IMG/VR virus record: IMGVR_UViG_3300017778_001280
Location: 1 to 45,266 of that record
DNA length: 45,266 nt
Source of the DNA: a virus
Taxonomy: Duplodnaviria > Caudoviricetes
Reading direction: 5' to 3' (one strand)
In this document: one piece after another, positions 14,733-35,166 of the stretch
Position numbering within the stretch: the stretch's first letter is position 1
Layout of the letters: the number at the start of each line of letters is the position of its first letter
Made by a program: the position numbers and the translations under genes
The notes under the pieces: model-generated
Told to the model about the DNA's origin: nothing
The model's input: the letters and a program-made list of their open reading frames with translations, nothing else
Databases searched by the model: none

Positions 14733-14917
14733 TGTTTTACCTTTGTTGATCTTCTTGATGCACGACCTGCCCAGCAGGAGGCGCAGTGCCATTTGGCGTG
14801 GTTAAGTTGGATGCCACCCTCTGGTGGTTTCATTTCATTGCAGTTATTGCACTCCTTATGTTGATGTACCGGCTGCTTACTTCCGATTGATAGCTGTTGT
14901 TTTGCGAACCCATTCAC
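14729..14917 (-). CDS. Small Zn-ribbon protein (CNNC...WHCASC)
   Basis: 62 aa, two CxxC, AGGAGG RBS. Confidence 0.75.
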   Translation of the reverse strand: MNGFAKQQLSIGSKQPVHQHKECNNCNEMKPPEGGIQLNHAKWHCASCWAGRASRRSTKVKQ

Positions 14918-21277: not shown

Positions 21278-21497
21278 TGGAACAGTGGTAGCTGCCCACA
21301 GTAATCAACTGCGGGACGGCAAAGGCCGTGGGCTCAAAGCTCACGACTACCGTATAGCGTCATTATGTTTTAGGTGCCACAGCGACTTAGACCAAGGCTC
21401 TAAGATGGATAAAGCCCAGAGGATTGAGATGTGGGAGGAAGCACATCGCAAAACTCTGGGTTTATTCTTTGAGCAAGGGATTATTGGACCTTACTAA
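21210..21497 (+). CDS. DUF968/DUF1364-like Zn-binding HNH-type nuclease
   Basis: LPCQHCG...VAAHSN...GKGRGLKAHD...LCFRCHSDLD. Confidence 0.8.
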   Translation: MYRNEKMLKAARLLPCQHCGVSDGTVVAAHSNQLRDGKGRGLKAHDYRIASLCFRCHSDLDQGSKMDKAQRIEMWEEAHRKTLGLFFEQGIIGPY

Positions 21498-24400
21498 CTT
21501 GTTTGTTAAACGCATCCATCTTCTCTTTGATGGCTTCATCTTTGCGTTTAATCTGGGCCTCGGGGGCATCGCGCTCCTTCAAGGCCTTTTTCTCTTTCTT
21601 GAGGCGAGCAATCTCATTCTCAACGTAGTTAGCGCGCCGCCACAGTCTGGCTTCAGGTGACTCTTTGTAGTAAGCCTCTACGCCCTTACCCTTCATGTCT
21701 TTAATGATCCGTTCGTGGTTGGACATTACCTTGATGTTCTCGTAGAACACGCCTGCGATAGCTGCCGGCGTTTTGATGTCGCCATAGAGCTTGCCTGCTA
21801 CTGGTATTTGGTAAGTCTCTACCTTTTCACCAGTGAATTGACTCTTAACGAACTCGCCTGTCTGAATGACAAGCTTACCCACACCACCAGCATACTGGCC
21901 AGCCACATAACTGATCTGATCTGCCGTAGGACTAACCAAACCTATGCCCTTGTCGCCACCACCAGTGATGAAGTTCAGCGCGTAAGCCAAGCCTTGGGAC
22001 ACAAAGTTTGCAGTCTCACGGCTACGCTCATATCCGGGCGAAGGAGCAAGAGCTTTGTCTTCTCTTGAGATAGGACGTCCGAAGGCATCCCTGTTCTCAG
22101 CAATCGCAACGAATGGGTCAACAATGGTTGGTGCCAGTGTCTGAGCAAACGTGCTAGTTCCCAGCGGGTTAACAGAACCAAGTATTGCATTAAAGATGTT
22201 TGTGATGGTTGTCTGAAGGTCGCGTCTACCATTCATTGCGCCAGCTTGAACCATCATGTACTCGGCGATCAGTCTACCAACGTTAGGGAAGACGTTAAAT
22301 CCAAGCGGCATTGGGATGGTCAAGTACTTACCATCGCCTACTGGGATGATCAAGTTCTTGGACTTCACCCACTCAGGAGGCTCATCTGCACCGAGGCCAG
22401 CCATCGCCAAAATAGCGGTCTGCATGACGCCAAGGAACATACCGCCGGCAATGATCTTCTTACCGAGGGAGCTTAACTTGATCTTGCCAGTCTTGTCCTT
22501 TGTGAACAGTGTTTCAACCAAACGCTTTGTACCTTGAATAGCGGCGTTAAAGAACGCATACAAGGCGGCAATCGTCTGAGTGCTTGCACCCTTACGGTTA
22601 AAGTTAACAGTGATGTTCTTAGCTAAACTTGCTGCCTGATCCTCAGACATCTCTTTGTCCAACGCAGCTTTGAACGAAGCCAAACGGACAGCATTCTCTA
22701 GTGCATCGTTATAGTCAGACAGCCAATCAAAGACAGCATAGGCGGCTTGTTTAACGTTGCTACGGCTCAGACGTCCCAGCTCACGGGCAACAATCGTATC
22801 TTTACCCTGACCACGGCTAAACTGCTCGCGGAATCCAGTCTGGCCACCAGCTTTTTGGAACCTCTCAAACAGATCCATCCACTTCTGCATCTCTGGATTT
22901 GTGGCTGGCTTACCGCGCAGGACGCGATAGATAGCTCTAACAGCAGTCATAGAGTCAGCAATGACCTGACCCTTTTTATCTGCAAGAGGCGTACTAGAAA
23001 GGTTGATGGCCGCACCCTGTAAGTCGCGTGTAAAGTTCCACGCACCAAACACAGGGTTGTACTGGGTATTCACAGCCGCCATAAAGCGGGTGATCTCAGC
23101 AACGCTACCAAGTACTTCGTCTAGGTCATTGATGCCAATGTTCTTTAAGGTTTCCACCATGCGCTTGGCGCTTGGGTTGCCCGGGTTAAAGAACACATAG
23201 CGGTCTTCACCATTAATACGCAACGCCAATACGTTAGGCGAGTTACGCATGTTTGGATTGATTTCGTACTTGACAAGCCCAGTCTTCTTATCAATCGCAC
23301 CGGTCTTTGGCTCTTGGAAGATGTTGTTTGCGTCATTGGGGTTCATTCCCAAGGCAACAATCTCATCAATCAACTTGGCCTTGTTCTTAATGGCGTCAGG
23401 GTTGATTGGCTTCCAGAAGTTTGGATTAGGATTCTGAATGGCCAGTGCATACAGCGCCCGTCCAACGCGCACCTTTTCTGCACGGACGATGGCACGTTCG
23501 CGCGCAAGTGCCAAGCTTCCGATGATGTCGCTGACACTCTTGAGCGAACCTACTGCGGCTTTAGTAAATGAACCCTTTACAGCAAAGCCTTGACCCATGC
23601 CACTGCTTGCATTGATAAAATCAAGCTCGTCAGGCTCACGGTTTAAAGGCACATAGAACGGAAGGCTCTCGCGCCAAGTATCAATCGTGCTTTGCTTTTC
23701 CAAGCCGGAGGACACTAACAGCTCTTGAGTGCCAGTAACGATCTCATCAATCTTCTTAGCAAGCTGTTCGTAACTCTTCTTCAGCTCTGGAGTTTTGTCC
23801 AAAGCATCCATGTAGGCATCTACTTCGTCATCAAACAATCCAGAACCTGCAGGATTGGTTGGGTCACGTTTAAGAATAAATGCGTTACGGGCTTTTGCAT
23901 GTCTAGCGTGAAGGTACTTGTTGAACTCCTCAAGCGTTACCCCGCGCTTATCCATGTCCTGAAGCAAAGGACGCAAGTCATTCTTCAGAAAGTCTGTAGT
24001 CTGCTTGGCCGTTCTGCCATGGAATAACTCTTCTTTCAGGTAGGGATTCCAATTATCCTCAATACGGCCAGACTCATTATTGATGGCTTCAATCACACGT
24101 TTGGTGTCGATGTGCTTATCAATGAACTTGTAAACAAGTGTGTCTGTTAACTTTAGATCGTCAGCAGCTTCCCACGTAGACAATGCACCGGGCCCACCTT
24201 TGAAGTTTCTGGAGTACAAAGCTTCGCTTGTGGCGTCTGCCATCTCACCAGAGAACGTTTCAGCATTTTGGAGTAACGCCAAGATGTCGTTGTCAGAGAA
24301 CTGCAGAGTAAATCCAGAGCTTCTTAACCAACCGCGCACGGCTTTGATGACGCGCTGGATGATGCTGTTTTGCATTCCGCGCTCTGCCATCATGGCCACG

Positions 24401-27400
24401 ATTTCTTTAGCACGGCGCTCGGGTGATAGACCGGGTTGTGTGCGGTCTACTTGTGCGGCAATCCCTTGAACAACCTTAGAGGTTTTCTCCAGCTCCTGAA
24501 CATTCTGGACCATGACCTTCATCAAGTCTTTGCCAAGCATGCCTTCTAATGCAGCGTGACCAATGGCCTCATGCGCCAGCACTTCTTGAACACGCTGGGC
24601 GTTTGGCAGGTTATCAGCCACCAAGTAAACAGTGTTACCAGAGAACCAAGCACCTTCCACATCAGCGGGAGCAGCTGCATCAGGCAAGTTGTCAGCAGAC
24701 TGAACCACTTTAACATTGATACCCTTGATTGCTTTGATCTGAGCTTCTACATCCTCAACGCTCTGACCGCCCTCGGGTATAGCGCGAGAGAACATGCCTT
24801 TCTTAGACTCAGAGTCATCAAACTCAACCTTCATTACCTCACGGGCAAGTTGACCAGCGTCAGCTTCCACTGTGGCAGGGTAATGCTTGTGCAAGTTTTT
24901 AATTAGGGCAATGAGGTTTACTGGGTCTGCAATAACATCCCGTGGGGACATCTCATAAGGGCCACCCTTTTTCTTGGCCAATGAAACGCCTTTGATAGAC
25001 GTTACAAACTTCTTAGGCGCATCACCAGAGATAGACAACCTAAAGCCGGTTGGCCTGTAGCTGTCTAGCGTCAATGTCCAAATGTTATTGGCACCACGAA
25101 CAACTTTGGTTGTGTAAGAGTTCTTTGAGTTTTCTGCATACGGCACAAAGCTTGGCAAGTTTGGCAGCAGGTACTGTCCCAAACTATCTGCTATGTCTTT
25201 GTAATCTTCCATCTGAGTGGAGTCATACTTTTTCCGTAGAATTTCATTCCAAGCAGCTAACGTATATTGCACTGCAGCATTAGCGTTACGCATACGCACA
25301 GGCTGATCACTGATGGCAACAGGCTGGTACTTCACAGGCATGATCACGCCAGAGACTTCCTCTGTTTGATTCTGCAAGGTGAACTTAGCGATCTCGCCAC
25401 CATCTTTGTCAAACAACTGAGCTGCTCTCAGGATATTGCCAAGTGCAATGTAACGAGTAGTGCGACCACCCGTCACTGACTTCAGAGCAAAAAATTCGTC
25501 CAGCGGAGGTCTACGCATTGGCTGGCTTCGTTCAATGCTTGGTCCCTCAAGGGCAGCCAGCGTAGGAGCAACGCGCCCCTCTGGGATATTGCGCTTAAGG
25601 ATGATCTGAAAGTTGGATGGCGAGTATGGGTTGCCAGTTTTTGACTTACCAATCCTTGACTTGTCTACCTTAACGCCGATCACAACAGCAGCTGCTGGCA
25701 CGTTGTTAATCATGAATGAATCAAAGCCAGTACCGATGGCAAACTGATTCCTCAAGGCGCTTAAAGTCTTTTCTCTGCGCTCACCAAGAGTAGCAAACTG
25801 TACGTCCAGAGCCTCTTTTTGCTTCGTTAACTCTGCAATATCTTTTTCAGTAGCTCCGGGTGCGGCAATGGCGGCACTCAAAGCTTGCTGTTTTAAAATG
25901 ATTTGGTTACGCACTTCAACAAAAACTGTGTTGAGATCGGTATCAATCTCTTCTACAACTTGTTGGGCAGTGCGACCATTCAAGGCTTGGGCAATATCAT
26001 CTTCAATGTTTTTCTGGGTTGGGATTGAGCCAATCACATCCACGTTGAACTGAGCCATCACCACATCAGACAAGAACGGATTGGTGCTATCTAAGCCTTC
26101 CTCGATCAGGTTCTCTTTGATCATTTCAGCGTTAAGCGGCAGAACACGGCGCTCAAGGGCGTTTGTTCCTGTCGCATTACGCAGCTCAATCTCGGCCAAG
26201 TAACTAGCTTCGATAGAGTCAAAGAACTCCTGTTGGTCTGAGGAGGACAGAAGGCCAGCTGTACCAGAGGCTTTGTGTGCCAAGTCAGAGCCAGCGGCTT
26301 CTGCGGGATCTGCAAATGACTGCTGGGCTAAGAATGCACGGATGTCAGCATGTTCGTTCAGGTACTCGGCAGTAGCAACGTCACCATACCTATTGATAAA
26401 GTCAACGCCGTTCACCTTGGTACTGCTAGAGCCACCCGATGTATTGGACTTCAAGCTTGACAACTTCTTACGAAGCATGGCCAAGATACGGCGCTCGGCT
26501 GGAATGCCGGTAGCCAACATGGTGAATGAAGGCCATTCAACCTGACCAGTGCGGTGGATACGACCCAGCAACTGGATGAATACGCTGATGTCTCCATGAG
26601 GCTGGAGCACCACCATGTGGCGTGGGCGCTGATCAAACGCTTCTGTAGATGCGTGTAACGAGATACCAGTTGCACCAGCTGAGTTAATGATCAATACATC
26701 AATCGGTCCGTTCTCTGACTCTTCACCGTTCTGGAATGAAGAGATCATCTCGGTGCGCTCTGGATTGCTCAGAGCCATGTACTTGGGCTTATCGCCACTG
26801 TAATCTACCGCTGTGTTACGGCCAGTAATCTCTTTGACCACCAGACGTCTGGCTTTAACTCCGGGCGGTGGTGCGTCACCAACGTTAGTCTTGCCGTCAG
26901 CTGTCCACACGTACTTGCCTTCAAGCTGTGTACGCATGTAGTCAATAGGAGCCACAGGCAAATCAGACTGGAAGTCTTTGACCATGTCTGCCAGATTGTC
27001 GTAGCCTGCCCTAATTGACGGGGGCATCAAAGAGTATGGGATCTCAACCTTGACGTTGTCTTTTGGATTCCCAGTAGCAGACTTCAGCGTGATCTTTCTA
27101 GTCGAATCAATCGCTCGCTGAAGCAAAGTCTGCCAACCAAAGTTAGGGATCTCATCGCCTATCTTAATGCCGTTCTTTGCAACAAAGTCATCTAGCGCAC
27201 TACCATTGGTATTCTGCAGACCAACAACAACCTTCTCGCCGTTGTTCATCTTGTCGATCACCATGTCTACGGCAGTCTGAGTCTTAGCAGACAGCAGTAG
27301 CGTACCAATGTAGTTGTGGACCACAGAGGTGAATGGATTACCTTTGGCTTCAGCAAAGGCAGTCGGGCCTTCTTTGCCCAGCATGGAGCCGGGTGGGCCA

Positions 27401-30400
27401 AGCGTGTTAATGATCAAAGCTTGATTAGAAGGATCCTTTGACCACTCTTTAAGTGCACGGTCAGCGTTAACTAACGCTCTAAGAATGGTTGTAACTTTGT
27501 CAACTTCACGGATGTCGCGTGGTGCGTTTGCATCGTCTGTAACAAAGTCCATCTTGACGCCTTCATACGATCTCTCGCGGCGTAACATGGAGCCAGACTC
27601 TACCAACATCTCAGAGGAAACCTGTTGCAGGACGTCAGTCTTAACGCCTTTACCAAACAAGTTGGTCAACTCTTCAGGCGTATTGGCCGCATACCGCAAG
27701 TTGGTATGGATGTACAGAGGCATGTTGTCTGGGCGTTTTGCAAACGTGGCAGACAAATAAACTGCTGGTGGTGGCACCCAATCTTCTGGAGTCTCAACGT
27801 CTTTGCCAAGCAAATCTATGCCCGTCAGCAATGACATAAAGAATGCGTTCTGACCCCTAGAGTCTGAATCAGAAGGGATACCAGCTGCGTTATGGGCTTC
27901 GTCCATAATCAAAACAGCTTTGCCTTGGGCGACCAAAGATGCAATAGCGTCTTGACGTTGAGGTGAGCCAGCACCACCGTTCAGTTGAGAGTAGGCTGTG
28001 AACAAAACGTCCATGCCTTTTGGCAATTCACCGTTCTTTTTGATGTAAGCCATCAAATCAGGACCGGCCTTACCTTTGTTCTCGAACACAGTCTTAATCT
28101 TGCCACCACCCATATTGCGCTGAATGATGGCATTGTTATTGGTCATGCCAATCTTGAACTCTTCGTGTCCAATGTTAATCAAATCTTCGTACATAGATGT
28201 GTACATTGAATCGTTAACAGTTACAAAGATTGGGATCTTCCCGTTCTTCTTAGCCCAGACAATCATGGCAGCAGCTGCACGGCCTTTACCTACGCCAGTG
28301 TCATCACCAATGATGAAGCCTTTACCAAGCTTGTTAGCCTGAATAGCCAGAGCCAAGCCATCAATCTGATAGCCCGCCAATCCCTTGGCCATCTTCTCTA
28401 CCGATGGGTAGCCCAGCTCACTAGCAACAAACTCATCAATGTTGCCAACTTGTGCTTCTAGGTTCTCAAGTGCAGAGTAAGCATGCTGAGACTGCGCGCG
28501 TGGTAAGTAAATGCCATCGCTGGCAAAGCGTGACTTACCAAGGTAGACAACCCGTGACTCTGTATCAATAGGTTCAGACTGAACAGGGGTTTGGTTCTTG
28601 GGGCGTTTTTGTACAACAGTGCGTAGGCTTCCAATAAATGTTTGGATGTGGGCTACGATTGCTTTTCCTAGCTGGGGAACCAACACATTAACAATGTGTT
28701 TAACTCGCGCACTAAAATCACTTATTGTTTCTCCAGCTAAGTTCCATACCTTTTGAATGATTGGCTGTACGTTAGCGTACTCTTGATCACCCTTGCGTGA
28801 GTATTGACCACTGTTAGGGTCATCACTGGTGTTCTTTGTATCTTGGGCAATACGTCCCAATGCTTCACCAACTTGCTTATCCAAACGCTCTGGACTGTTT
28901 TCTGGTGTAGTTTCTTTGGTTACTTGTGGCGCTTTGCCAGTTAAAGCAATTCTTAATTCTTCAACCAAAGCTTGCATCTCTGGAGAAACGTCAACAGCCG
29001 CCGCTTTGGGTTCGCGTTTAGCGCCCGGCTCTTTAGCTTCTCTTGGTTTTCTAGCCCCGCCAGTTGGCTTTTCTCGCTTACCTTTTGTTTCTTTCTCTTC
29101 TAAAGACTCATTGATGTCTTTAAATAATGCTTCTAGGTCTAGGTCAGAAAGTCCTCCCAGTTCATCTCCTGATCCTCCGCCGCCATCTTGGCCTCCTTGG
29201 GTTCCGCCGGCTTCGACACCGCTGGGTCCCCCTCGTTTACCTTTTCCGCTATCCGGCTGCTGTTCAGCAGTACCAGCTCCACCAGCTGTTCCTCGTCCTC
29301 CGCCAGCGGTAGTTCCAGTGCCCCGTCCTGTTTTAGGTAGTTGTTCGCCGACTCCACCGCCCTCTGTAGTCCCCACTCCTGCGCCAGTGCCTCCATCTTC
29401 CACCGCACCGCTTGTTGGTACTCCTCCGGCTGGTTGATTGGCACCGCCAGTAGCTGGCTGTTTCTTTCCGGTACCCACCACGACTTGTTCGCTACGATCA
29501 CTGGTTTGAACATATCTGCTCCAAAGTTCATCAAATGTAGTTATCCGATCAACGGTTGAGTCAATTGGATAAACGTTGTCCGTTTGGTTTCTGCCGGCAA
29601 TAACTAAGACGCGCAACGGCCAATTCGCGCCTTGTTTACGATACAAGCCACCAGCAATTTCATAGTGATCCGCTACGTTATAGTTCCCATATAACCAGTT
29701 CAAGAACACCCGATCTGTGGATGTAATTGTTCCGGGCTTGGGGTGAGCTCCAAGGATCAAGACAGCACGGCCATTGTTAGCCATGGCGCGCAAAGACTTG
29801 GCAGCAATCGCTTGATCAAGCGTACCAATCTTATAGTTCTGACCATTCCAAGACGGGACGTTATCAGGCGTAGACAAAGCTCCAAACGGAGGATTTGCCA
29901 AGACAACATCAACCTCTTGATCTCTTAGGTCTTTTAATTTCTCAAACACATCACCATCAATCACGTTACCGATTTGCATTAGACGCATGTTCTCGGCACG
30001 GTGTGGGTCTAACTCTATTGTTGTGACGTTCTGTGGGTTAGCCGCCACCACCAACATGCCGTTACCACCTGTTGGGTCTAACACTGTTGTAGTGGACTTA
30101 ACACGCGCCAGCATACCTGCTAAGAAAGCAATAGGGAGTGGCGTAGAGTAGGCGTTGTTACTCTTGCTCAGTACAGACTGAACGTCTAATGTAGGTTGGT
30201 TCTGATACAGGTTAACGATGTATTCGTAGATGGCCTTTGTATCTGAGCCCTGCGCTCGCATGTCAGTAATGACTTGGCTAATGTAACGTGTAGCTGCCGC
30301 CTCAAAGTCTTCCTGAGTCTGCTTAAGCTTGACGCGATCACCTTCAAAGTCAGCAATCTTGTATCTTTCAATCTCACGTTGGTCTTTAGCTGGGTTAAAA

Positions 30401-33400
30401 CCAAGCAACTCTGGATTTTGTAAGTAGGCCTTAATACCATACTCAGCCAGCTCACGGTTGTTCTTTGGCCACCAGCCCTGACGCATGTGATAGAACATGG
30501 ACTCAGCCATTGAGCCGTTCTTAATCTCAGGCCACTTAAACAGACCCATCTCTTCCATAATAACGTCAATGCGCTTGGCCATGTCAATGATGTGCTGGTT
30601 GACCTTGCTCATCTGCATGTCAGTTGGCGTCAAGACTCGCTCTTGGCCATCACGCGCTGCTTTAGTACGTTTGGCTTCGTCTTCAGTTTTAAACCAAACC
30701 AAACCACCAGAAGTACCTGAATCCAAGTTATATTGGTCTAGGACTGCATAACCCAGATCTTCAATTTCAACAATCTTGGTGTCCATCTTGTAGGTCTTGA
30801 CTTCCAGAGTCTCTGGGTCAATCTGGGTGAGCATCTGCTTATAGACTTCATTGAGCTTTGGACGCTCTTTACCTAGTGGGTAAATGGTGCCGCCATAACC
30901 ATTCTTTTTGGTAATGTATCCATCAGCAACGGTAGGGCCAACAAGGTATGGGCTGCCACCTTTAGATGCGTCAAACAGCATAGCCTCAAACGCGCGAGAC
31001 AACAGCTCTACGTCTGTGCCCCAGTAGCGAGGCTCTCTGCCTTCGTCTTGGTCTAATTGCTGTGCGTCTTTAAAGTATTGCGTTGTTTTGTCTGAATCTC
31101 TGATAACAGGGGCTGTACCCCAGTAGCCTTGATTTGAGATGGCCGCAAAGAATGCTTTCTTGGGAGGGAGATTACGGTTGTCTGTGCTACCAGCTGTATC
31201 ACGTAACACACCCTTTAGGTAGTTCTCTACTGTCTCAATCTCAATCTGCTTTTTAAGACGCGAGACTGTGCCCGACATTAATAACTTGCCGTTTGGCGTC
31301 TGCTGAAGGTTCCAATCCAAGCCGTGCTGCCACTCATGTCCAAGTGATCCATCACCTTTGGTTTTGGTCAGGTTGATTTCATTAAGCTTGGGGAAGTAAT
31401 GAGCTGCAGTTTTGCCGCCACGACCTTGCGCTCCGATGGCCATCTTGAGCTTCTCGCCCAAGCCCAACATCTTTGGATTGATACCAGAGACATCCGCCAA
31501 GTCATACATGGTGTCATAGATGGCGTTAAGGTGAGCAGCTCGCTCAGTCTGGTTAACCCAGTTACCAAAGTCAATACCACCCGGGAAGAAACCAAACGTA
31601 GTTACAAAATCGTTTGTATCAACATCACGACCCTGTCGGTGATCACGCATACCACGGCGAACAATGTTGCCAAGCTCTGGTGGTACTTCGGTTTCTTTCT
31701 TAACGATACGATTAGTTTGATCGGTTGAATCTTGATTAGCCGCAAACAAGCCATCCATCTTGTTAAATAGATTAACTAAAGCATTTGCTGATAACTTATT
31801 GCGTAGATTTAATCCATCTTCGGTGTACTTTGCAGATGAACCACTTGCTTCCGCATCTTTGATGTACTTTTCTCTTAGTGCCTTATCTAATTCACCAACA
31901 CGGGCGTGTGAGTCAAAGACCGCCTGCAAGCCTTGAAGTGCATCAACATAACTCTGCAAGAGCTTTTGTATTTCCTCTTGCTTACCCTCTTCCAGAGCCA
32001 GTTTAATGGCTTGACGGCTACCAGTCCTGTCCGATACACGGACTATTCTGTTTTCTTTTATAGCCTTTAGCAGGTAATCAGACGCCGGCATGACGAAGCT
32101 TACGATGCCCTCTTTGTACATCATTGCACCAAACGAATTGTCTTTGTTTGAGTCAATGTCAAGTAGCGTGTCCTTGGCAACAGCTGCCAACATCTTAGAG
32201 ATCTGACTGTCTGTAGCGTCTTTAGGAGCTGGAGGTGCTGTAACTTTACCCTTGCGGTTCTTTACAAACTCAGCACCACCACCTTGAATACTTATTTTCT
32301 CCGGCTTGTATAACGCTGATATAGTGACGCGCTCTGGTCCTGTGTAGGATGGATCATCCGTAGCAGAAGGGATAGAACGATCAGTAATGCGGAAACCAAA
32401 CTTAGTTAATGCCTCTTCAATCTTAGAAACATTTGGCAAGTCCACAGGAATACGCAACAGACCTTCTGCAGGGAAGATGATTGGGAAAAGGTCTTCTGCT
32501 ACAGCGTTGCCGTACAGCAAAGTTGAAACCTGATCAGCATTACCCTCTTCCATAGCAACCTTCATAGGCTGCTTGTTAAATTCCTCGAGCTTTTTCTTTT
32601 GCTCGTCAGCGGCTTTCTTTTCTTCTTCAGCTTTAGCTTTTTCTTCAGCAGCTTTAATCTTCTCTTCTTCAGTAAGCTTTACCTTGGGTGGCTTGGGCTC
32701 TTTAGCACCACCAGTAGGAGCAGCCTCACCAGCAGGCTCAGATGGGCCTCCAGCGGGCGCAGATGGACCGCCTGTAGGTTTGGGTTCACCTTCAGCAGGT
32801 TTCTCTTCTGCAGGCTTTACTAACTCTTCTGTAGGTGTCTCTTCCGCAGGCTTTTCTTCAGCGGGTTTTTCTTCCGCTGGCGCTTCCTCGGCTGGCTGTT
32901 CAACAACATCAGCGGGCTTTTCCTCTGGTGGCTTCTCTTCGACTGGTGCCTCTGGAGTCTTCTCTACAGTTCTACCCTTGGTGATCCTGTCAATCGTATT
33001 GCGAATGTTCTCAACGGCCTTTGCGTCACCATTGGCTGCAGGAGATAAACCTTCGTTAGGGTTTATACCTAGCGCCTGTGCAGTGGGCAGTTGACCCATT
33101 TGAGAACGAATGTCTCCAATGGTAGTGTTTAGCTCATCCGCAGCTGCCTTGAGTTCGGGCGAGTTGTAAAAGTTGTTGATGTCTTCTTCACTACCCTTGT
33201 TAAACCAACCGTCTGGACCGTTACCAAAGTATGGGTACCACTGGCCTGTAGGCACATTCTTTTTACCGCCACTACCAGTGCTGATATAGAACGGAACCTT
33301 GACGCCATTAACCTCTTTAACTACAGCAACACGCCTGTTAGTAACAAACGGTTCTGTAACACTACCAGTGGTAGAGGTGGCTGGCGCTTCTGGAGCTGCC

Positions 33401-35166
33401 GGCGCTTCCGTTGGCGCAAGATTACTGCGTAATGCTTTTAGCGTTCCAATAGGATCAGTTCTTAACCCTTCATTGATCTGCATTATCTGTGCGGTGCCAA
33501 GCCTTTTGCCAATCTCAGATTGAGCAAAACGCTCCGGAGTCATTCTTCCTTTATTGGCGCTATCTTCTAAAGCCTCCAATTCAAAGTCAGCATCTTCCAA
33601 AGATAGTGGTTCAAAGCCTTCGTAAGCTGGGCTTTGCAACAACGTGTATTTAAATCCTGTTGGTACAGTAAACTCTGGCGTAGTAACTACAGCTTCTGGC
33701 GTTGTTACCGGAGCCTGTGGCTTAGTCACTGTAGGTGCAGATGGACCACCAGTAGGCGCTACTTGCTCACCAGTCTCTACGGGTTTACCCTCAAGCTCAC
33801 CCATCATCTGGCCTGTGTCTTGGCTCTCATCCAATACTTGCTGGATTAATTCAGTGCTTGGTGGTTGTTCAGTAACTACTGGTTCTGCGACTGCAGTTGG
33901 CGGTGTAACTTGCACACCATCAATGTCTACACTGCCGTCTTGTCTAGTAACTTTTGTAACAGGCTTTCCATCAACATCAACTGTCATAGTGCCGACAACT
34001 GGGCTAGTGGACGGAGGAGTTGTGGGTGCTGGCGCCATACCAGCGGGAGCTCCTTCATCTGGGGGAACTCCAAGTATTTGTTTGTTTTCTGCAAGCAAGC
34101 TCTCAAGGCCGCTTGGTGCTTGTCCAGTCTTACGAAGGCTACCAAAGCCTCCACCGACTGCACCCATACCAAAGCCAGCCAACATGCCCATGGCGGATGC
34201 TTCAGCAACGCCGTCCATGAGTGGCCTGTCCATGGCGTAGTTCATCCACATCTGCTCTTGCGCTGACTGTGGCAACTCCTCAAACACACCCTCAGAGATG
34301 CCAGAGCCCGTAGCTTTCAGAGCAAAGTCTCTTACTGATTTGCCAACGCCCTGCTTGGCTTGTCCGGCAGCTTGACTTGCACCACCAGCCAACAATGTAT
34401 CAATGTCATCAAGGCCAAGCTTGTTAGCCAACTTACCGCCAGCCGCACCAAATGCAGCTGTACCAACGCCAGAACCAACGGCAGATATAACCTGCTTACC
34501 AGACAACAACTTGTCTTTGGATTCCTGACGCATTTGCTCTGCAGCCGCGCCAGCACCAATCAAGCCTTCGCCTGCGGCACCAGCGGCTACAGCGCCAATT
34601 TTAGGAGCTACCTGCAATAAGCCTCGAGCAATACCAGCACCGCCAAGCATTTGTGGTATTGACTCACCAGCTGTCGTAAAGATAGTGCTGGGGTTTTGAA
34701 GAGCTGCTTTAGCTGTGGGTAAGAAACCTTGGGCTTCTCTAACCTTGCGATTAGCCGCTTGTTGAGCCTCAGACAAATATGTGTCGAGAATCTCTCTGGC
34801 TTCCTTGGGTTTAAAGCCAGCCTGCTCAAGAAGCTTACCGGCATAACCCATCGTGGGTAGATCAAGCAAACCAACAGCTGCTTCGGGTAAGCCAATAGCG
34901 CCCTTTAACAATGTGATGCCAACGTCCTTGGCTGTACCGCCTACTGTTCTTTCATATCCCTGTGCTTCTCTAGCCGCAACTTGAGCGCGGTACTCGTCCG
35001 CAGTCATTGTGTTTGGTGCGCGTGGAGCAATAGACTCAAGGCCGGCAGGGGCTGGGGCTGGAGCCGTCTGCGCTGAAAATTTACCGTATCGAGCAAGCAA
35101 CTCAGCTTGCGTGATTCCCTCTGGAACACCAGTAATCGTGGTGCCATCTGGCATCAAGACGTCCAT
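21481..35166 (-). CDS. Giant polyvalent virion protein (DarB/DdrB-like): LPD1-type zincin, N6-adenine methyltransferase, Strawberry-notch SF2 helicase, second zincin, LPD38-like C-terminus
   Basis: HEWQH (31324-31338), VLDPTGGNG and NPPFG (29881-29895), GDDTGVGKG (28282-28308), DEAH (27892-27903), QLLGRIHRTGQ, HEAIGH (24556-24573), NFNRKG (22589-22606); last gene of the ejection-protein cluster. Confidence 0.85.
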   Translation of the reverse strand: MDVLMPDGTTITGVPEGITQAELLARYGKFSAQTAPAPAPAGLESIAPRAPNTMTADEYRAQVAAREAQGYERTVGGTAKDVGITLLKGAIGLPEAAVGLLDLPTMGYAGKLLEQAGFKPKEAREILDTYLSEAQQAANRKVREAQGFLPTAKAALQNPSTIFTTAGESIPQMLGGAGIARGLLQVAPKIGAVAAGAAGEGLIGAGAAAEQMRQESKDKLLSGKQVISAVGSGVGTAAFGAAGGKLANKLGLDDIDTLLAGGASQAAGQAKQGVGKSVRDFALKATGSGISEGVFEELPQSAQEQMWMNYAMDRPLMDGVAEASAMGMLAGFGMGAVGGGFGSLRKTGQAPSGLESLLAENKQILGVPPDEGAPAGMAPAPTTPPSTSPVVGTMTVDVDGKPVTKVTRQDGSVDIDGVQVTPPTAVAEPVVTEQPPSTELIQQVLDESQDTGQMMGELEGKPVETGEQVAPTGGPSAPTVTKPQAPVTTPEAVVTTPEFTVPTGFKYTLLQSPAYEGFEPLSLEDADFELEALEDSANKGRMTPERFAQSEIGKRLGTAQIMQINEGLRTDPIGTLKALRSNLAPTEAPAAPEAPATSTTGSVTEPFVTNRRVAVVKEVNGVKVPFYISTGSGGKKNVPTGQWYPYFGNGPDGWFNKGSEEDINNFYNSPELKAAADELNTTIGDIRSQMGQLPTAQALGINPNEGLSPAANGDAKAVENIRNTIDRITKGRTVEKTPEAPVEEKPPEEKPADVVEQPAEEAPAEEKPAEEKPAEETPTEELVKPAEEKPAEGEPKPTGGPSAPAGGPSEPAGEAAPTGGAKEPKPPKVKLTEEEKIKAAEEKAKAEEEKKAADEQKKKLEEFNKQPMKVAMEEGNADQVSTLLYGNAVAEDLFPIIFPAEGLLRIPVDLPNVSKIEEALTKFGFRITDRSIPSATDDPSYTGPERVTISALYKPEKISIQGGGAEFVKNRKGKVTAPPAPKDATDSQISKMLAAVAKDTLLDIDSNKDNSFGAMMYKEGIVSFVMPASDYLLKAIKENRIVRVSDRTGSRQAIKLALEEGKQEEIQKLLQSYVDALQGLQAVFDSHARVGELDKALREKYIKDAEASGSSAKYTEDGLNLRNKLSANALVNLFNKMDGLFAANQDSTDQTNRIVKKETEVPPELGNIVRRGMRDHRQGRDVDTNDFVTTFGFFPGGIDFGNWVNQTERAAHLNAIYDTMYDLADVSGINPKMLGLGEKLKMAIGAQGRGGKTAAHYFPKLNEINLTKTKGDGSLGHEWQHGLDWNLQQTPNGKLLMSGTVSRLKKQIEIETVENYLKGVLRDTAGSTDNRNLPPKKAFFAAISNQGYWGTAPVIRDSDKTTQYFKDAQQLDQDEGREPRYWGTDVELLSRAFEAMLFDASKGGSPYLVGPTVADGYITKKNGYGGTIYPLGKERPKLNEVYKQMLTQIDPETLEVKTYKMDTKIVEIEDLGYAVLDQYNLDSGTSGGLVWFKTEDEAKRTKAARDGQERVLTPTDMQMSKVNQHIIDMAKRIDVIMEEMGLFKWPEIKNGSMAESMFYHMRQGWWPKNNRELAEYGIKAYLQNPELLGFNPAKDQREIERYKIADFEGDRVKLKQTQEDFEAAATRYISQVITDMRAQGSDTKAIYEYIVNLYQNQPTLDVQSVLSKSNNAYSTPLPIAFLAGMLARVKSTTTVLDPTGGNGMLVVAANPQNVTTIELDPHRAENMRLMQIGNVIDGDVFEKLKDLRDQEVDVVLANPPFGALSTPDNVPSWNGQNYKIGTLDQAIAAKSLRAMANNGRAVLILGAHPKPGTITSTDRVFLNWLYGNYNVADHYEIAGGLYRKQGANWPLRVLVIAGRNQTDNVYPIDSTVDRITTFDELWSRYVQTSDRSEQVVVGTGKKQPATGGANQPAGGVPTSGAVEDGGTGAGVGTTEGGGVGEQLPKTGRGTGTTAGGGRGTAGGAGTAEQQPDSGKGKRGGPSGVEAGGTQGGQDGGGGSGDELGGLSDLDLEALFKDINESLEEKETKGKREKPTGGARKPREAKEPGAKREPKAAAVDVSPEMQALVEELRIALTGKAPQVTKETTPENSPERLDKQVGEALGRIAQDTKNTSDDPNSGQYSRKGDQEYANVQPIIQKVWNLAGETISDFSARVKHIVNVLVPQLGKAIVAHIQTFIGSLRTVVQKRPKNQTPVQSEPIDTESRVVYLGKSRFASDGIYLPRAQSQHAYSALENLEAQVGNIDEFVASELGYPSVEKMAKGLAGYQIDGLALAIQANKLGKGFIIGDDTGVGKGRAAAAMIVWAKKNGKIPIFVTVNDSMYTSMYEDLINIGHEEFKIGMTNNNAIIQRNMGGGKIKTVFENKGKAGPDLMAYIKKNGELPKGMDVLFTAYSQLNGGAGSPQRQDAIASLVAQGKAVLIMDEAHNAAGIPSDSDSRGQNAFFMSLLTGIDLLGKDVETPEDWVPPPAVYLSATFAKRPDNMPLYIHTNLRYAANTPEELTNLFGKGVKTDVLQQVSSEMLVESGSMLRRERSYEGVKMDFVTDDANAPRDIREVDKVTTILRALVNADRALKEWSKDPSNQALIINTLGPPGSMLGKEGPTAFAEAKGNPFTSVVHNYIGTLLLSAKTQTAVDMVIDKMNNGEKVVVGLQNTNGSALDDFVAKNGIKIGDEIPNFGWQTLLQRAIDSTRKITLKSATGNPKDNVKVEIPYSLMPPSIRAGYDNLADMVKDFQSDLPVAPIDYMRTQLEGKYVWTADGKTNVGDAPPPGVKARRLVVKEITGRNTAVDYSGDKPKYMALSNPERTEMISSFQNGEESENGPIDVLIINSAGATGISLHASTEAFDQRPRHMVVLQPHGDISVFIQLLGRIHRTGQVEWPSFTMLATGIPAERRILAMLRKKLSSLKSNTSGGSSSTKVNGVDFINRYGDVATAEYLNEHADIRAFLAQQSFADPAEAAGSDLAHKASGTAGLLSSSDQQEFFDSIEASYLAEIELRNATGTNALERRVLPLNAEMIKENLIEEGLDSTNPFLSDVVMAQFNVDVIGSIPTQKNIEDDIAQALNGRTAQQVVEEIDTDLNTVFVEVRNQIILKQQALSAAIAAPGATEKDIAELTKQKEALDVQFATLGERREKTLSALRNQFAIGTGFDSFMINNVPAAAVVIGVKVDKSRIGKSKTGNPYSPSNFQIILKRNIPEGRVAPTLAALEGPSIERSQPMRRPPLDEFFALKSVTGGRTTRYIALGNILRAAQLFDKDGGEIAKFTLQNQTEEVSGVIMPVKYQPVAISDQPVRMRNANAAVQYTLAAWNEILRKKYDSTQMEDYKDIADSLGQYLLPNLPSFVPYAENSKNSYTTKVVRGANNIWTLTLDSYRPTGFRLSISGDAPKKFVTSIKGVSLAKKKGGPYEMSPRDVIADPVNLIALIKNLHKHYPATVEADAGQLAREVMKVEFDDSESKKGMFSRAIPEGGQSVEDVEAQIKAIKGINVKVVQSADNLPDAAAPADVEGAWFSGNTVYLVADNLPNAQRVQEVLAHEAIGHAALEGMLGKDLMKVMVQNVQELEKTSKVVQGIAAQVDRTQPGLSPERRAKEIVAMMAERGMQNSIIQRVIKAVRGWLRSSGFTLQFSDNDILALLQNAETFSGEMADATSEALYSRNFKGGPGALSTWEAADDLKLTDTLVYKFIDKHIDTKRVIEAINNESGRIEDNWNPYLKEELFHGRTAKQTTDFLKNDLRPLLQDMDKRGVTLEEFNKYLHARHAKARNAFILKRDPTNPAGSGLFDDEVDAYMDALDKTPELKKSYEQLAKKIDEIVTGTQELLVSSGLEKQSTIDTWRESLPFYVPLNREPDELDFINASSGMGQGFAVKGSFTKAAVGSLKSVSDIIGSLALARERAIVRAEKVRVGRALYALAIQNPNPNFWKPINPDAIKNKAKLIDEIVALGMNPNDANNIFQEPKTGAIDKKTGLVKYEINPNMRNSPNVLALRINGEDRYVFFNPGNPSAKRMVETLKNIGINDLDEVLGSVAEITRFMAAVNTQYNPVFGAWNFTRDLQGAAINLSSTPLADKKGQVIADSMTAVRAIYRVLRGKPATNPEMQKWMDLFERFQKAGGQTGFREQFSRGQGKDTIVARELGRLSRSNVKQAAYAVFDWLSDYNDALENAVRLASFKAALDKEMSEDQAASLAKNITVNFNRKGASTQTIAALYAFFNAAIQGTKRLVETLFTKDKTGKIKLSSLGKKIIAGGMFLGVMQTAILAMAGLGADEPPEWVKSKNLIIPVGDGKYLTIPMPLGFNVFPNVGRLIAEYMMVQAGAMNGRRDLQTTITNIFNAILGSVNPLGTSTFAQTLAPTIVDPFVAIAENRDAFGRPISREDKALAPSPGYERSRETANFVSQGLAYALNFITGGGDKGIGLVSPTADQISYVAGQYAGGVGKLVIQTGEFVKSQFTGEKVETYQIPVAGKLYGDIKTPAAIAGVFYENIKVMSNHERIIKDMKGKGVEAYYKESPEARLWRRANYVENEIARLKKEKKALKERDAPEAQIKRKDEAIKEKMDAFNKQVSKVQ
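29139..29513 (-). CDS. Candidate nested out-of-frame gene (124 aa) inside the giant gene
   Basis: GGAG-N5-ATG; acidic amphipathic-helical product; extent matches the Gly-rich linker of the host frame. Confidence 0.55.
   Translation of the reverse strand: MFKPVIVANKSWWVPERNSQLLAVPINQPEEYQQAVRWKMEALAQEWGLQRAVESANNYLKQDGALELPLAEDEEQLVELVLLNSSRIAEKVNEGDPAVSKPAEPKEAKMAAEDQEMNWEDFLT

Follow-up and report, generated by a model that had tools for sequence, protein, structure and literature searches.

The locus raises the question of whether a giant phage enzyme conceals a second gene in the linker between two of its domains and, if so, what the product of that gene does. The window, i.e., the whole stretch of 45,266 nucleotides that was analyzed, can be attributed to a tailed phage because it encodes terminase, portal, ejection-protein, helicase, primase and Erf genes, and its matching runs are freshwater metagenomes. 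Within the structural region, 3′ of the DNA-ejection-protein gene, lies a gene on the minus strand (21481..35166) for a polyvalent protein of 4,561 residues that comprises LPD1, an N6-adenine methyltransferase (MTase), a strawberry-notch-type helicase and LPD38. The MTase domain (29509..30315, minus strand; DPTGGNG and NPPF motifs) is separated from the strawberry-notch-type SF2 helicase core (26347..28551, minus strand; DDTGVGK and DEAH motifs, with AAA_34 at residues 2279-2543 and Helicase_C_4 at residues 2777-2940) by a linker of approximately 320 residues (28552..29514, minus strand). In the +1 frame of this host gene an ORF for 124 amino acids runs from an ATG at 29513 to a TAG at 29139 (29139..29513, minus strand), wholly inside the intact host ORF; it overlaps host residues 1885-2010, its start sits in the last helix of the MTase, and the initial 126 residues of the linker are the glycine-rich reading of the same DNA. 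The +1 frame is closed by an in-frame stop nine codons 5′ of the nested ATG (29541..29543, minus strand), and a Shine-Dalgarno (SD)-like GGAG is found 5 nt 5′ of it (29519..29522, minus strand), such that GGAG-CAGAT-ATG spans 29522-29511. An earlier note on this DNA had described a same-strand, alternative-frame ORF with GGAG-N5-ATG, which is borne out down to the exact protein sequence that it quoted. It had also described the host frame as turning Gly/Thr-rich from this ATG on; the composition is confirmed, with 33% Gly and 11% Thr in the overlap versus 9% and 6% in the whole protein, but the biased stretch begins some 15-20 codons 3′ of the ATG rather than at the ATG. Elsewhere in the window, long ORFs are sparse and the coding strand switches between positions 14800 and 21400, where the plus strand carries the Erf and PD-(D/E)XK genes.

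The methylase-helicase dyad of polyvalent proteins has DarB of phage P1 as its archetype, and a strawberry-notch subtype has been noted (Iyer et al., 2017, PMC5512222). The host protein of the window resembles this dyad in the fusion of an N6-adenine MTase (TP and NPPF motifs) to an SF2 helicase, in LPD1 and LPD38, and in its location in a virion gene region (PMC5512222), here with ejection-protein, portal and terminase genes. Being packaged, injected and protective against restriction is known for P1 DarB only (PMC5512222, PMC12810830), which works together with Ulx and other helpers (PMC12810830, PMC9144972), and the host protein may have a similar anti-restriction role. By contrast to the window, the helper Ulx is encoded in P1 by a separate downstream gene, and darB has no sequence match to the nested profile described below. 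P1 darB (L212) contains four +1-frame ORFs of 76-127 codons, none of which matches this profile.

The length of the nested ORF proves nothing by itself, because a longer +1 shadow ORF is present in the same host gene (30186-30608) and because the nested frame stays open with P = 0.23 when the host codons of this genome are recoded synonymously. In GC-rich relatives this value reaches up to 0.97, as would suit the reading that there is no gene at all and that the open frame is a mere shadow of a Gly-rich host linker. Conservation, however, sets the nested ORF apart from this shadow ORF: 21 of 22 close loci keep the nested frame open, versus 5 of 22 for the shadow ORF. The remaining locus (L019:3001-3240) has a premature stop after 79 codons of the nested frame while the host frame is intact, reflecting either a real loss or an assembly error. 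A protein search returned 88 matches among 96 candidates, mostly full length and with 43-94% identity. Within the 22 close loci, +1-frame stops per 40 codons average 0-0.05 inside the overlap versus 0.2-5.6 outside, and the third-position divergence of the host falls from 0.44-0.48 outside to 0.13 in the overlap. The median dN/dS for the 231 pairs formed from these loci, which are non-independent, is 0.33 for the nested frame, 1.69 for the host frame and 0.98 for the third frame, with 0.08 and 0.06 for the flanking MTase and helicase, respectively. Thus, purifying selection acts on the nested frame, in agreement with what the earlier note had anticipated, and the host reading there is near-unconstrained; a host-frame value greater than 1 is what synonymous change in the nested gene is expected to produce and does not reflect positive selection. 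The same pattern was seen in all 14 further pairs from other clades, including cyanobacterial plasmids, with a pN/pS of 0.12-0.70 for the nested and 0.93-2.29 for the host frame, and the nested protein is conserved better than the host reading at all distances tested. Selection on the host alone would raise the dN/dS of the +1 frame, which is the opposite of what was observed, and a shadow would not be expected to yield a confident predicted fold. A mere shadow is therefore hardly credible, and the nested ORF is almost certainly a real gene.

The signal from which this gene would be translated is built from host codons. In the window, the GGAG is made from the Trp-Ser codons of FDELWSRY, and its pairing energy of -5.6 is stronger than at the other +1-frame ATGs tested at the locus. 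Across 43 nested starts, which were picked by position, the anti-SD pairing 5′ of the start has a median of -5.6, compared with -2.2 at 931 further ATGs of the +1 frame that served as controls (p 5e-17). The usual start derives from the W-x-x-x-Y of the last methylase helix, where TGG gives GG and TAT-G gives ATG. Nested loci encode the Tyr with TAT in 35 of 40 cases, where 14.1 would be expected from the usage of each gene; among the 29 loci that lack the gene, in which the motif is F-x-x-x-Y, 17 have TAT and 16.4 would be expected. Since TAT-G is also present in 12 of these 29 gene-less loci, the SD and ATG, although conserved across the nested loci, are partly a by-product of host residues. 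Close relatives also share an ATG six codons further upstream that would give 130 amino acids; however, a host Asp codon accounts for it and L043 does not have it, so that the form of 124 amino acids is the likelier one. The ORF starts directly where the MTase ends, and its frame stays open for 27-94 codons upstream in several GC-rich loci, as would be expected if a programmed +1 frameshift produced a shorter MTase-plus-domain protein and no separate protein. This is quite improbable given that the frame is closed shortly upstream in the window, that the start regions share no visible slippery sequence, and that SD and ATG are conserved. Indeed, starts that are shifted downstream carry a strong SD (L138, L141, L142, and L145), and in L141 a TAA stop directly abuts the nested ATG, which favors independent initiation over frameshifting.

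Distant loci were fetched via the host methylase and helicase, and not via the nested ORF, to avoid circularity. Two of the retrievals kept the best 80 of 251 and the best 80 of 414 matching stretches, respectively; 21 single-domain loci were left out, and duplicates, 22 close relatives and two near-copies were collapsed. A +1 ORF of 108-167 codons is found at the linker in 43 of 48 non-redundant fused MTase/strawberry-notch-helicase loci with a linker of at least 100 residues, these best-80 sets included; two of the 43 (L011 and L043) were retrieved by nested-protein queries. The long-linker loci without such an ORF are L070, L156, L159, L182, and L199. The nested gene fills the linker, its stop preceding the helicase by 6-15 codons in 36 of the 43 loci. 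A profile built on 41 distant ORFs only places the window ORF at the top of 786 six-frame segments (E 3.4e-4), a profile made from the host frame of the same DNA recovers nothing, and in leave-one-out tests of the nested profile 40 of 41 ORFs beat shuffles. Every nested copy with DNA context sits in the MTase-helicase linker, in phages and plasmids alike; no copy was found outside the linker among 20,096 ORF segments of the fetched loci, which is a weak test since these loci were chosen by the module. Among ten plasmid loci, all six cyanobacterial plasmids examined carry the nested ORF (profile E 6.5e-5 to 0.09), including the unannotated one on pAQ6 of the culturable Picosynechococcus sp. PCC 7002 (NC_010480.1, 100507-101013, minus strand). 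Of the other four, the Cupriavidus and Pseudomonas plasmids are devoid of the nested ORF, that of Persicobacter is annotated as split, and that of Thalassospira (L214, WP_317336981.1) has a methylase-helicase gene of approximately 18.5 kb whose linker holds a +1 ORF, matching by position and unscored by the profile. The ORFs of BS-TP4, Gloeobacter and Thalassospira are matches by position, their sequence similarity not being significant. Taken together, selection, profile and positional conservation strongly support the view that the gene is selected and tied to the methylase-helicase module.

The proposal of the earlier note that the two are inseparably linked is nevertheless too strong, because the module also occurs without the nested gene. 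This is the case in 48 non-redundant fused and 12 split loci, mostly from one large Bacteroidota clade, as well as in two proteobacterial plasmids; Pleionea and elements from Acinetobacter, Cupriavidus and Pseudomonas are among the cases, and the nested gene is thus not essential to the enzyme. In 43 fused loci, mostly from Bacteroidota, the linker has 32-67 residues and leaves no room for a nested gene, and neither a small gene nor a stand-alone nested copy is found between the methylase and helicase genes of the 12 split loci. These adjacent split genes belong to Bacteroidota (L139, L143, L144, L154, L161, and L169, and further L188, L190, L192, L197, L198, and L201), and several of their methylases end in a common K-L-x-A-K-A-I-x-L-K-Q-K-Q tail. 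In a helicase tree built quickly from 111 rows, the root of which is uncertain owing to long branches, presence of the nested gene changes three times, which is compatible with one gain and two losses.

The nested protein was described in the earlier note as an acidic, helical, folded protein, and the predictions agree. From 121 aligned sequences, AlphaFold predicts a short N-terminal β-hairpin followed by six helices (pLDDT 93.8, pTM 0.86), and the net charge is -11 in the window protein, with a median of -10 and a range of -19 to 0 among 66 sequences. Only M1 and P15 are invariant and W13 is nearly so; otherwise mainly hydrophobic residues are conserved, and no catalytic signature is evident in the predicted protein. 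Cys and His make up 0.1% and 0.8% of the family, respectively, and both are absent from the window protein. Family and fold searches with the nested protein gave no assignment.

Several known systems share the layout of this locus. The embedded spanin genes Rz/Rz1 of phage lambda, whose two products form a complex, likewise place a whole gene out of frame within a phage gene (PMC6139136), but the host here is an enzyme of 4,561 residues and constraint is stronger on the nested frame; an Rz1-type o-spanin can be rejected because the window protein has no Cys for a lipobox. The ShiLan-type hidden HNH endonucleases are out-of-frame genes inside phage DNA methylases, in which the host-frame reading is a passive loop, and are patchy, selfish and without an RBS (PMC11855218). 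That the nested gene is such a selfish inserted element is suggested by this shared layout only up to a point, since it has an SD, lies between two domains, shows neither an HNH nor another nuclease motif, and is inherited with the module, its presence following the helicase tree rather than being patchy. With no His in the window protein and no HNH Pfam match in 54 family members, a hidden HNH homing endonuclease is rejected, and selfish elements of this kind are largely refuted and must be regarded as a very remote prospect. Nested products that act with the host-frame product have been reported for slr0489/slr1079/slr1082 of Synechocystis (10.64898/2025.12.20.695498) and for GndA in gnd of E. 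coli (10.64898/2026.10.22.760973). The nested gene would resemble these in its internal out-of-frame reading, but the proteins are unrelated, and translation was proven experimentally there while it is inferred here. Both nested genes and DarB-like proteins are thus already known, and it is the pairing of the two that was not found in the literature searched: no paper on a nested gene in the methylase-helicase linker was retrieved from a coverage largely outside subscription journals, and the main text of PMC5512222 contains none of the words “overlap,” “linker” and “low-complexity.”

Two further readings accept the gene and differ about its function. The product could be an independent effector, such as an anti-restriction or other host-binding protein, that merely shares a transcript with the giant protein. 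A small and acidic protein would suit such a role, as would its retention in L030, where the catalytic motif of the adjacent MTase is altered, and anti-restriction by P1 requires several small proteins besides DarB (PMC12810830). However, no similarity to P1 Ulx is detected (hhalign E 0.48, probability 0.1%), so that the two are unrelated, and copies outside the linker were lacking in the survey described above, weak as that test is. The range of charges also matters for a comparison with DNA mimics of the Ocr/ArdA type: Ocr is a DNA mimic and not neutral, while some members of the nested family are neutral. An independent effector is consequently rather unlikely. The earlier note had also considered a packaging adaptor, and an adaptor for delivery, by which the giant protein would be loaded into capsids or onto a conjugation apparatus, would be in line with the position of the host gene after the DNA-ejection-protein gene, with the packaging of DarB-like proteins in virions (PMC5512222, PMC9144972), and with the more than 1,000 residues that precede the MTase end in most hosts with the nested gene, compared to mostly 300-520 in hosts without. 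The idea is weakened by the cyanobacterial plasmids, which carry the nested gene although their host proteins start at the MTase; a single capsid-specific role therefore cannot cover the family, and delivery as the function is still less likely than an independent effector.

The explanation preferred here is that the nested gene encodes an accessory subunit, independently initiated, that may bind the methylase-helicase as a chaperone or inhibitor, a role for which the chances appear evenly balanced. Ribosomes would initiate internally at the nested RBS and produce a separate small folded protein, which would bind the methylase-helicase module and, up to the delivery of the module to the next cell, hold it folded or inactive within the producing cell. 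The host frame over the nested stretch would act as a near-neutral tether; linkers that lack the nested gene are short. A partner role is suggested by the strict positional tie in phages and plasmids, by the lack of catalytic residues and by the precedents for nested products. The many modules that do without the gene count against it, as do the premature stop of L019 and the wide spread of net charge. More tentatively, and with somewhat less confidence than for the subunit itself, it is conceivable that an ancient class of enzymes for DNA delivery carries the code for a regulatory subunit of its own, with an undescribed fold, inside an interdomain linker, as the on/off switch of strawberry-notch-type DarB-like anti-restriction proteins. 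If so, the linker would exist solely as the read-through of the nested gene, locking enzyme and regulator into one inherited and expressed unit that spans phages, prophages of Proteobacteria, Lentisphaerota and Desulfovibrio, and cyanobacterial plasmids. Long, fully nested and deeply conserved genes are rare in prokaryotes. Here the selection on the hidden frame is clear, and the gene brings an unannotated family, whose predicted fold is confident, to a widespread host class of injected methylase-helicases. The case further shows that a second gene can cast its shadow as a low-complexity linker in a giant phage protein. In L030 and L063, the NPPF of the MTase reads HPPA, suggesting an inactive methylase, while the nested gene is intact, with 72% identity. 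The intact gene of L030 beside such an MTase indicates that the role of its product need not concern methylation.

That standard annotation would miss the gene holds for the long records checked, i.e., BS-TP4, PCC 7002, PCC 7117, Acaryochloris, Leptolyngbya, and Chroococcidiopsis, in all of which it is unannotated, but not for short contigs, on which gene callers report the nested protein as “hypothetical,” nor for Gloeobacter. In the latter the nested protein is annotated (WP_230844304.1), and it is the upstream methylase that is missing from the annotation, with the host frame being continuous. Several database proteins consist of nested sequence fused to host-frame or unrelated sequence (P0063, P0072, P0073, P0075, P0076, P0078, P0065, P0084, and P0086), in a number of cases with the downstream linker in front, and are probably assembly chimeras or frameshifted reads. 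On the Gloeobacter plasmid pGMOR1 (L205:6806-7255), and in no other locus examined for it, the nested stop overlaps a host-frame ATG with a strong SD, which may allow a restart of translation for the helicase.
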